Source: Mytilus trossulus (taxonomy: Eukaryota). From it: a stretch of 64,000 nucleotides of DNA. The stretch covers positions 58,280,001 to 58,344,000 of the forward strand of contig NC_086374.1 of NCBI RefSeq assembly GCF_036588685.1, written 5' to 3'. Under the pieces are notes generated by a model, which was not told the origin of the DNA, did no database searches, and saw only the letters and a program-made list of their open reading frames with translations. Below, in pieces: positions 53,960-54,546 of this stretch. Every line of letters starts with the position of its first letter. Position 1 is the first letter of the stretch. The translations under genes were made by a program, and so were the position numbers.

Positions 53960-54527
53960 CTTAACTCGGCTTTGGCTATACTTTTTGTCCTTTTTTGTTT
54001 ATAAGCTCTTCATTTTATAAGATTTGGATATCCAAATATTTTGGCCTCGAGCATCACTGAAGAGACAATTACTGTCGAAATGCGCATCTGGTGCAGAAAA
54101 ATTGGTGGCCGTAATTCTATTATCTAGACGTATCAGATTATAAGCTTGGTATTTTTTATGAGTGTTTACAACTACTTGGTTGATGCTACTGCTGTTGGAC
54201 GTTTCGTCCTCTATGGTATCACTATTCGGCACTTTTGTGTTCACATGAAATATCATTGATAAGTCATGTCTGTAAATTTACTGTTTATAATGTTTTAAAT
54301 TATTCGAAACACTATAGTTTTTCTATCCTCGTGCATGGATTGCCTTGGCCATATTTGGAACAACTTTTTGGAATTTTCGGATTTTATGCTTTTTAACTTC
54401 GTGTTTGAATCGCCCTAGCTCCAACTGTTTTGATTCGAGCGCCACTGAAGAGTTTAATCTAAACGTTTATTTGTAAAGTGCTTCTGTCCTGATGTTCAAA
54501 TTATGAGTCTGGTATCTTTAATAAGTT
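53960..54527 (+). mobile_element. Retrozyme-like non-autonomous retroelement (about 390-nt unit)
   Basis: Two hammerhead-type cores 388 nt apart (CTGAAGA at 54057 and 54445; the second lacks GAAA); body resembles 15085-15381 and 40065-40216. Boundaries approximate. Confidence 0.7.
54051..54094 (+). ncRNA. Minimal type I hammerhead ribozyme (intact core)
   Basis: GCAUCA-CUGAAGA-GACA(auuac)UGUC-GAAA-UGCGCA-UC^UGGUGC: stem I, CUGANGA, stem II, GAAA, palindromic stem III, cleavage after AUC (54088). Confidence 0.85.
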
Positions 54528-54546
54528 GTTTTTTTTAACATTTTAG

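Follow-up and report, generated by a model that had tools for sequence, protein, structure and literature searches.

An old yet intact retrozyme hammerhead in what is predicted to be intron 1 of a Mytilus trossulus lectin gene, probably a slow-cutting and near-neutral passenger

The stretch of Mytilus trossulus DNA analysed here, called the window below (64,000 nucleotides; contig NC_086374.1, positions 58,280,001 to 58,344,000), carries on its forward strand four coding exons of a predicted lectin gene, which have GT-AG ends and matching phases:

48623-48677, forward strand: exon 1 (predicted, coding), resembling a signal peptide and followed by a phase-1 GT donor, 72% amino-acid identity to exon 1 of a paralog
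54547-54792, forward strand: exon 2, PAN/apple domain (Pfam PF00024, E 4e-5, above the cut-off)
59865-60032, forward strand: predicted exon 3, coding for the N-terminal half of a C-type lectin-like domain, 76% to the paralog
about 62342-62519, forward strand: predicted exon 4, a second C-type lectin N-terminal half

The gene runs, therefore, from a PAN domain into C-type lectin exons. No Pfam family scored on exons 3 and 4 alone, and their best PDB matches were C-type lectin folds (best E for exon 3, 0.001); another two lectin exons, of which one has EPN, are found just beyond the window (locus L114), and a relative protein, P0006, combines PAN with Lectin_C. A PAN plus C-type lectin gene of this kind probably has an immune role. 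Our literature search found no paper on a Mytilus C-type lectin with a PAN/apple domain, and the protein searches returned solely paralog-type or distant sequences, with no ortholog found together with its flanking DNA. As a side observation, the lectin exons are ordered N-half, N-half, C-half, C-half (59865-62519 in the window and L114:2300-2950), an order which suggests that one C-type lectin domain may be nested in another, and P0006 has two lectin N-halves and one C-half.

The earlier note on this DNA had placed a hammerhead ribozyme in intron 1 of this gene, and the exon models, the PF00024 match, two contig breaks and the conserved exon 1 of the paralog all agree with that placement. In one public run, whose kind is unrecorded, a 272-nt contig carrying 2 differences breaks off from the genome precisely at the donor of exon 2. 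A second, paralog-like contig of the same run (24 differences where 23 are expected) breaks off at 54545, where the 2 shared bases fit a spliced exon-1 end, while 9 would fit paralog genomic DNA. It might be argued that exon 1 is wrong or the gene silent, so that the region lies outside the transcript and the hammerhead is never transcribed there, given that among the 15 joints listed, of 35 in this run of unrecorded kind, none connects exons 1 and 2 of this copy. We regard this as extremely improbable: exon 1 and its phase-1 GT donor are conserved in the paralog, 1.5 kb upstream of the paralog exon 2, the two contigs break as just described, and any upstream exon would still place the last 600 nt before the acceptor within the transcript. 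The position of the hammerhead, sense and intronic, is well supported, though not proven.

The motif itself lies at 54051-54094 of the forward strand, and is made of these parts:

54051-54056 and 54089-54094, forward strand: stem I, GCATCA paired with TGGTGC, 6 bp
54057-54063, forward strand: catalytic core CTGAAGA
next, forward strand: stem II, GACA paired with TGTC, 4 bp, closed by a 5-nt loop
54077-54079, forward strand: GAA
54080-54087, forward strand: palindrome ATGCGCAT
54088, forward strand: C17, after which cleavage is predicted

It is a complete type I hammerhead on the sense strand, as the earlier note had read it, with a complete catalytic core and three helices and with a predicted cut between 54088 and 54089, 458 nt upstream of the end of intron 1 (the note gave about 460 nt to the acceptor), exon 2 beginning at 54547. 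With both strands scanned, two full-topology hammerheads were found in the window (54051-54094 and 53200-53243), against none in 100 first-order Markov controls, and the core pattern occurs twice against 0 of 100 shuffles. No Rfam model matched in the window at the gathering threshold, and therefore these models miss this hammerhead variant. The word "minimal", also used in the note, had to be dropped, since helices of 6 bp, 4 bp and a short palindromic III make a canonical type I hammerhead by the definitions of PMC4209133 (this and the other papers cited here are drawn on in excerpt). The minimal hammerheads of Penelope-like elements (min-HHR) are described there as having no helix III, an extra base between positions 9 and 10.1 and a long helix II, a description that 54051-54094 does not fit. 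Its helix III is predicted to have 2 bp with a palindromic loop in the monomer and 8 bp in a dimer, and most invertebrate type I motifs are reported to cleave as monomers in the available text of PMC7761336. Folding models add little: the 2D folding z-scores of the motif are near 0, the active fold comes out 5-8 kcal/mol less stable than the ensemble at 37 C, for a young copy of the same family too, and stem I, when modelled in 2D in its context, has a probability of at most 0.18 in 5 of 5 longer windows, as in the young copy. Given that the young copy folds equally poorly, in-context folding neither favours nor separates the 54051 copy.

All the core and stem bases of this hammerhead agree with a repeat family which we call family A, the sole site of changes within the motif being loop II (ATTAC), and changes in loop II of hammerheads are tolerated. 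Throughout the 1.3 Gb genome scanned, the exact core of family A occurs 2,422 + 2,471 = 4,893 times (control 0) and that of its sister family B 8,597 + 8,300 = 16,897 times, which together make 21,790 exact cores, or one per 60 kb. With 1.07 such cores expected per 64-kb window, the presence of a hammerhead in this one is not unusual for the genome; for an intron of this length, about 0.05 would be expected in sense orientation. Another family-B core, at 15140-15163 on the reverse strand, failed the full-topology scan. Family A often forms tandem arrays of 350-nt units and family B arrays of 355-nt units, both within the 150-450 bp known for such repeats and with one hammerhead per unit, and the sequence at the locus is non-coding, with no ORF of at least 150 aa and a local GC of about 31%, below the 50% mark. 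In M. galloprovincialis, two similar type I families of non-LTR retrozymes have been described, with about 5,000 hammerheads in repeats of 350-390 bp, a kobs of about 0.1/min and abundant circular RNA (PMC7229834). Families A and B likely match these mussel retrozymes by unit length, two-family structure and abundance, the likeness extending to low-GC tandem repeats of about 350 nt in thousands of copies and without coding capacity; the families are likened by description, not by sequence, and the 21,790 exact cores found here exceed the roughly 5,000 published for an older mussel assembly (PMC7229834). The retrozyme origin put forward in the earlier note is, in this sense, borne out by a 350-nt family with 4,893 exact cores. 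The hammerhead is real, and what is new in it is one more copy of a published retrozyme type; as a family member it carries little weight, in a genome with about 22,000 such cores.

How family A moves may be read from its ends. We surveyed a panel of 30 loci chosen by the core pattern, which gave 22 distinct arrays whose end could be seen (one array continued beyond the edge of its locus), and 19 of these 22 stop at +33 to +36 past the cut site, while upstream they reach anywhere from about 36 nt to over one unit. The family-A piece in the window ends at +34, in agreement with this fixed 3' end; family-B arrays end mostly at +41 to +49. Penelope-type reverse transcription is expected to give a fixed 3' end and a ragged 5' end (PMC11167929), and both the panel and the window copy show a fixed 3' end with variable 5' truncation, from which we infer that family A is mobilised by a Penelope-like reverse transcriptase. 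The hammerheads of Penelope-like pLTRs share the fixed 3' end, tens of bases past the ribozyme, and the variable 5' truncation, as excerpted from PMC4209133, PMC11167929 and bioRxiv 10.64898/2026.07.22.740005, but the 54051 motif differs from them in its canonical helix sizes and in belonging to an ORF-less tandem family. Two loci of the array-end survey (L070 and L094) showed yet another hammerhead variant, which differs in its tail and is possibly a third retrozyme or Penelope family.

The family-A piece does not stand alone, but is the first part of a composite insert that reaches almost to exon 2:

53967-54122, forward strand: 5'-truncated family-A piece, 156 nt of the 350-nt unit, 82-87% to family copies
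54123-54529, forward strand: decayed family-B unit with its 3' tail, 54123-54524 being 73-74% to B arrays
54439-54490, forward strand: dead family-B hammerhead, core at 54445, with an insertion in GAAA and with stems I and III broken
54518-54522, forward strand: candidate branch-point-like TTAAT inside the family-B tail, its A about 26 nt before exon 2

The dead core lies 388 nt downstream of the first one, with about 9 nt inserted in GAAA, and the retrozyme-like sequence stops about 17-22 nt before the exon-2 acceptor; in giving a second, dead core at that distance and an end some 20 nt before the AG, the first reading was accurate. It went astray in taking both cores for one element, given that a family-A piece (82-87%) here adjoins a family-B unit (73-74%), and the spacing of 388 nt is that of a family-A tail plus one family-B unit. 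A 388-nt unit, or a dimer of a single family, was also rejected, because the stretch after the first core carries the A tail followed by the homologous B tail, and among the loci examined no other A core was found with a B tail within 120 nt downstream. We likewise discarded a family-B piece starting at its own cut site, since in the paralog some 15 further bases of the B hammerhead survive. An active retrozyme is said to need two live hammerhead units (bioRxiv 10.64898/2026.07.22.740005, in excerpt), and the locus has one intact A core and one dead B core. Its B hammerhead being dead, the locus can give off neither monomer nor circle, and in this it differs from the M. galloprovincialis retrozymes of PMC7229834; this pre-mRNA also contains no intact same-family partner for a cis dimer. 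The locus is a retrozyme-derived remnant, without the status of an active retrozyme. As for the B tail, it holds the best-placed branch-point-like motif of intron 1 in both paralogs (-26 here, -24 in the paralog), and we considered whether it was conserved as a branch-point source; its 25/30 identity to the paralog (p 0.005) is equalled by an internal control at 54130-54179 (25/30), and the idea was abandoned.

The paralog just mentioned lies 7.7 Mb away (G000:C2:50.65-50.66 Mb), with the four exons following in the same order and sharing 70-78% amino-acid identity, and further paralogs occur at G000:C2:50.65-50.73 Mb. At the corresponding position it carries the same A plus B composite (71.5% over 53965-54845), and consequently the insert predates the gene duplication. 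The paralog hammerhead is dead, having an altered G12, a disrupted stem II and an insertion of 3 nt; the four exons of the paralog remain open. In the window lineage, none of the 39 core and stem positions has changed, against 11 of 117 in the family-A flanks and loop (3 more are ambiguous), with 47 of 337 changed in the B unit (28 ambiguous positions left out); the Fisher test gives p 0.037 against the A flanks and loop and p 0.006 against the pooled 58/454, but the locus was chosen for its intact core, and these p-values are inflated because of that choice. The paralog hammerhead decayed at the background rate (4/39 vs 17/112). The flanks of the window copy differ from the commonest letters of family A at 21 of 110 positions (19%), and copies picked by an intact core show at most 9% flank divergence in the 25 evaluable of 30 (the other 5 being 5'-truncated). 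When copies were found by flank instead, 21 other matches were obtained, of which 1 was of family B, 13 were old A copies (87% or less) and 7 young A copies; none of the 13 old copies keeps the core, and among the young ones 4 of 7 keep it and 2 of 7 are fully intact. Old-and-perfect hammerhead copies are rare, with a neutral survival chance per old copy of 0.3-4%, or 2-11% given an intact core. Likeliest, the perfect core at this locus reflects chance among many old copies together with ascertainment.

Could the hammerhead instead have been kept by selection here, damping or timing lectin expression through pre-mRNA cutting, as a brake that was lost in the paralog? An old copy with 39 of 39 core and stem bases intact, changed solely in loop II and the flanks, speaks for it, as do the loss of the core in all 13 other old copies, the background-rate decay in the paralog and the sense orientation, and there are precedents in CPEB3 (PMC10919898) and in the conserved intronic hammerheads of amniotes (PMC7761336), both known to us in excerpt. 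We nevertheless hold it unlikely, since the locus was ascertained by its intact core, at a neutral survival of 0.3-4% among what are probably thousands of old copies, the acceptor is only 458 nt away as compared with 9,931 nt in CPEB3, with a ribozyme that is slower here at the borrowed rate, no compensatory changes and no cis partner are seen, and the modelled stem I probability (at most 0.18, as in the young copy) lends no support from folding. The corollary that a retrozyme hammerhead was captured before the duplication and then selected in one paralog, as a domesticated intronic hammerhead in an invertebrate with a natural on/off pair, is doubtful to the same degree.

Another way to an intact core that has nothing to do with function would be gene conversion, in which young family-A copies or their cDNA overwrote the hammerhead tract. 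Within the 74-nt tract 54033-54106, two loop bases are the sole positions with window-specific changes, such changes cluster outside it (53996-98, 54022-32 and 54107-17), and thousands of young family-A copies could have served as donors. However, the loop II sequence, ATTAC, differs from the common family loop and is nearer to the paralog loop and to a rare variant, and 53967-53995 is likewise free of window-specific changes, so that the patchiness extends beyond the ribozyme, and we consider this explanation quite improbable.

Whether the hammerhead matters for the gene depends on how much of the pre-mRNA it would cut in time, and the earlier note had proposed that cleavage competes with the splicing of intron 1. 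All the cleavage and elongation rates available are borrowed, from 37 C assays or from mammals. With 0.7 kb left to transcribe, the polymerase transit would take 0.2-0.7 min, against a half-life of about 7 min at these borrowed rates, and by arithmetic from k 0.1/min and elongation at 1-3.5 kb/min, 2-7% of the transcripts would have been cleaved by the time exon 2 is finished. The calculated share at 0.1/min rises to 20-24% with a splicing-commitment lag of 2 min and to 41-44% with one of 5 min, and at the coral rate of 0.8/min it would be 15-43% before exon 2. Proximity to the acceptor shortens the time window, and so the effect of cleavage becomes smaller. Competition with splicing is, in consequence, the weak part of the proposal, with a rate of about 0.1/min (PMC7229834, in excerpt), no cis partner, 2-7% of transcripts cut and a paralog whose exons stay open with a dead hammerhead; what speaks for it is a copy that is old yet fully intact.

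The CPEB3 ribozyme lies 9,931 nt upstream of its exon and has a half-life of 2-3 min, and slow intronic ribozymes were without effect in the work of Fong 2009, as cited in the same excerpted paper (PMC10919898). In zebrafish, an engineered fast hammerhead, T3H48, gave a strong knock-down when placed in an intron (PMC11856399, in excerpt). In Xenopus, 42-44% of the retrozyme copies are intronic, so intronic copies are common there, and retrozyme copies are also depleted in introns, which suggests that intronic cutting may not always be neutral (bioRxiv 10.64898/2026.07.22.740005, in excerpt). The HDV-like CPEB3 ribozyme, T3H48, the amniote intronic hammerheads and the window copy are alike as sense-strand self-cleaving motifs in introns of protein-coding genes, but CPEB3 is single-copy and conserved, besides its long distance and short half-life, and T3H48 is engineered and very fast, whereas the window copy belongs to a repeat family, has the borrowed half-life of about 7 min, lies 458 nt from its acceptor and is dead in the paralog. 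On exapted intronic retrozyme hammerheads, our literature search found one review, the available text of which names vertebrate cases only.

Taking all this together, we consider it probable that the locus is a 5'-truncated retrozyme copy beside a decayed sister-family copy in the predicted first intron, inserted by Penelope before the gene duplication, and that it is a slow cutter and a near-neutral passenger. Penelope-driven reverse transcription would have inserted the copy before the duplication, the fixed +34 end fitting in vitro work on another Penelope element, in which internal initiation was demonstrated. The pre-mRNA would then be cut slowly at 54088/54089, at about the borrowed 0.1/min or slower, a slower rate being expected from a monomer without a cis partner in a cold animal, so that a few percent of the transcripts may be cut before exon 2 is made, with most cutting presumably falling on the excised intron. 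The perfect core would stem from chance among many old copies and from the choice of locus, or from past gene conversion by young copies. Against the passenger reading stand the 0/39 core and stem changes at 19% flank divergence where 0/13 old copies retain the core, the 20-44% that would be cut at 0.1/min with a commitment lag of 2-5 min, at borrowed rates, and the depletion of the Xenopus copies in introns. What is noteworthy in the locus is its old age set against the intact core, with a dead twin in the paralog; should selection prove true, a retrozyme ribozyme would have been co-opted for gene control in an invertebrate, and the pair of paralogs makes any effect of retrozymes on host genes directly testable.

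The same intron holds a second full-topology hammerhead, of the Penelope-like kind:

53200-53243, forward strand: third hammerhead, minimal, of a Penelope-like repeat, found by the topology scan
53003-53327, no strand assigned: Penelope-like remnant, with an inverted copy (about 53003-53186) and a direct copy (53186-53327)

With its extra base and near-absent helix III, the 53200-53243 motif resembles a min-HHR, its 3' half can pair with the upstream inverted copy, and this motif and inverted repeat are of the kind seen in Penelope-like pLTRs. The remnant is absent from the paralog intron, and a first look genome-wide gave about 440 candidates. Two relatives (L073 and L072) sit behind ORFs whose motifs look, by eye, reverse-transcriptase-like and GIY-YIG-like. 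Also in intron 1, at 50234-51432 on the forward strand, an ORF remnant of 184 aa is followed by a very high-copy tail; Pfam gave no real match for it, and it probably resembles the terminal part of a reverse transcriptase of non-LTR or Penelope type. Exact tandem duplications of 287 nt and 69 nt, with 100% identical copies, occur at 53308-53881 and 55058-55195, and are either recent events or assembly artefacts. Farther off, long LTR-retrotransposon ORFs, broken up over four frames, lie at 19814-25862 of the reverse strand, which by their motifs we take to be BEL/Pao-like, and a 166-nt tandem array of 8.8 copies with 93% matches occupies 29417-30872.
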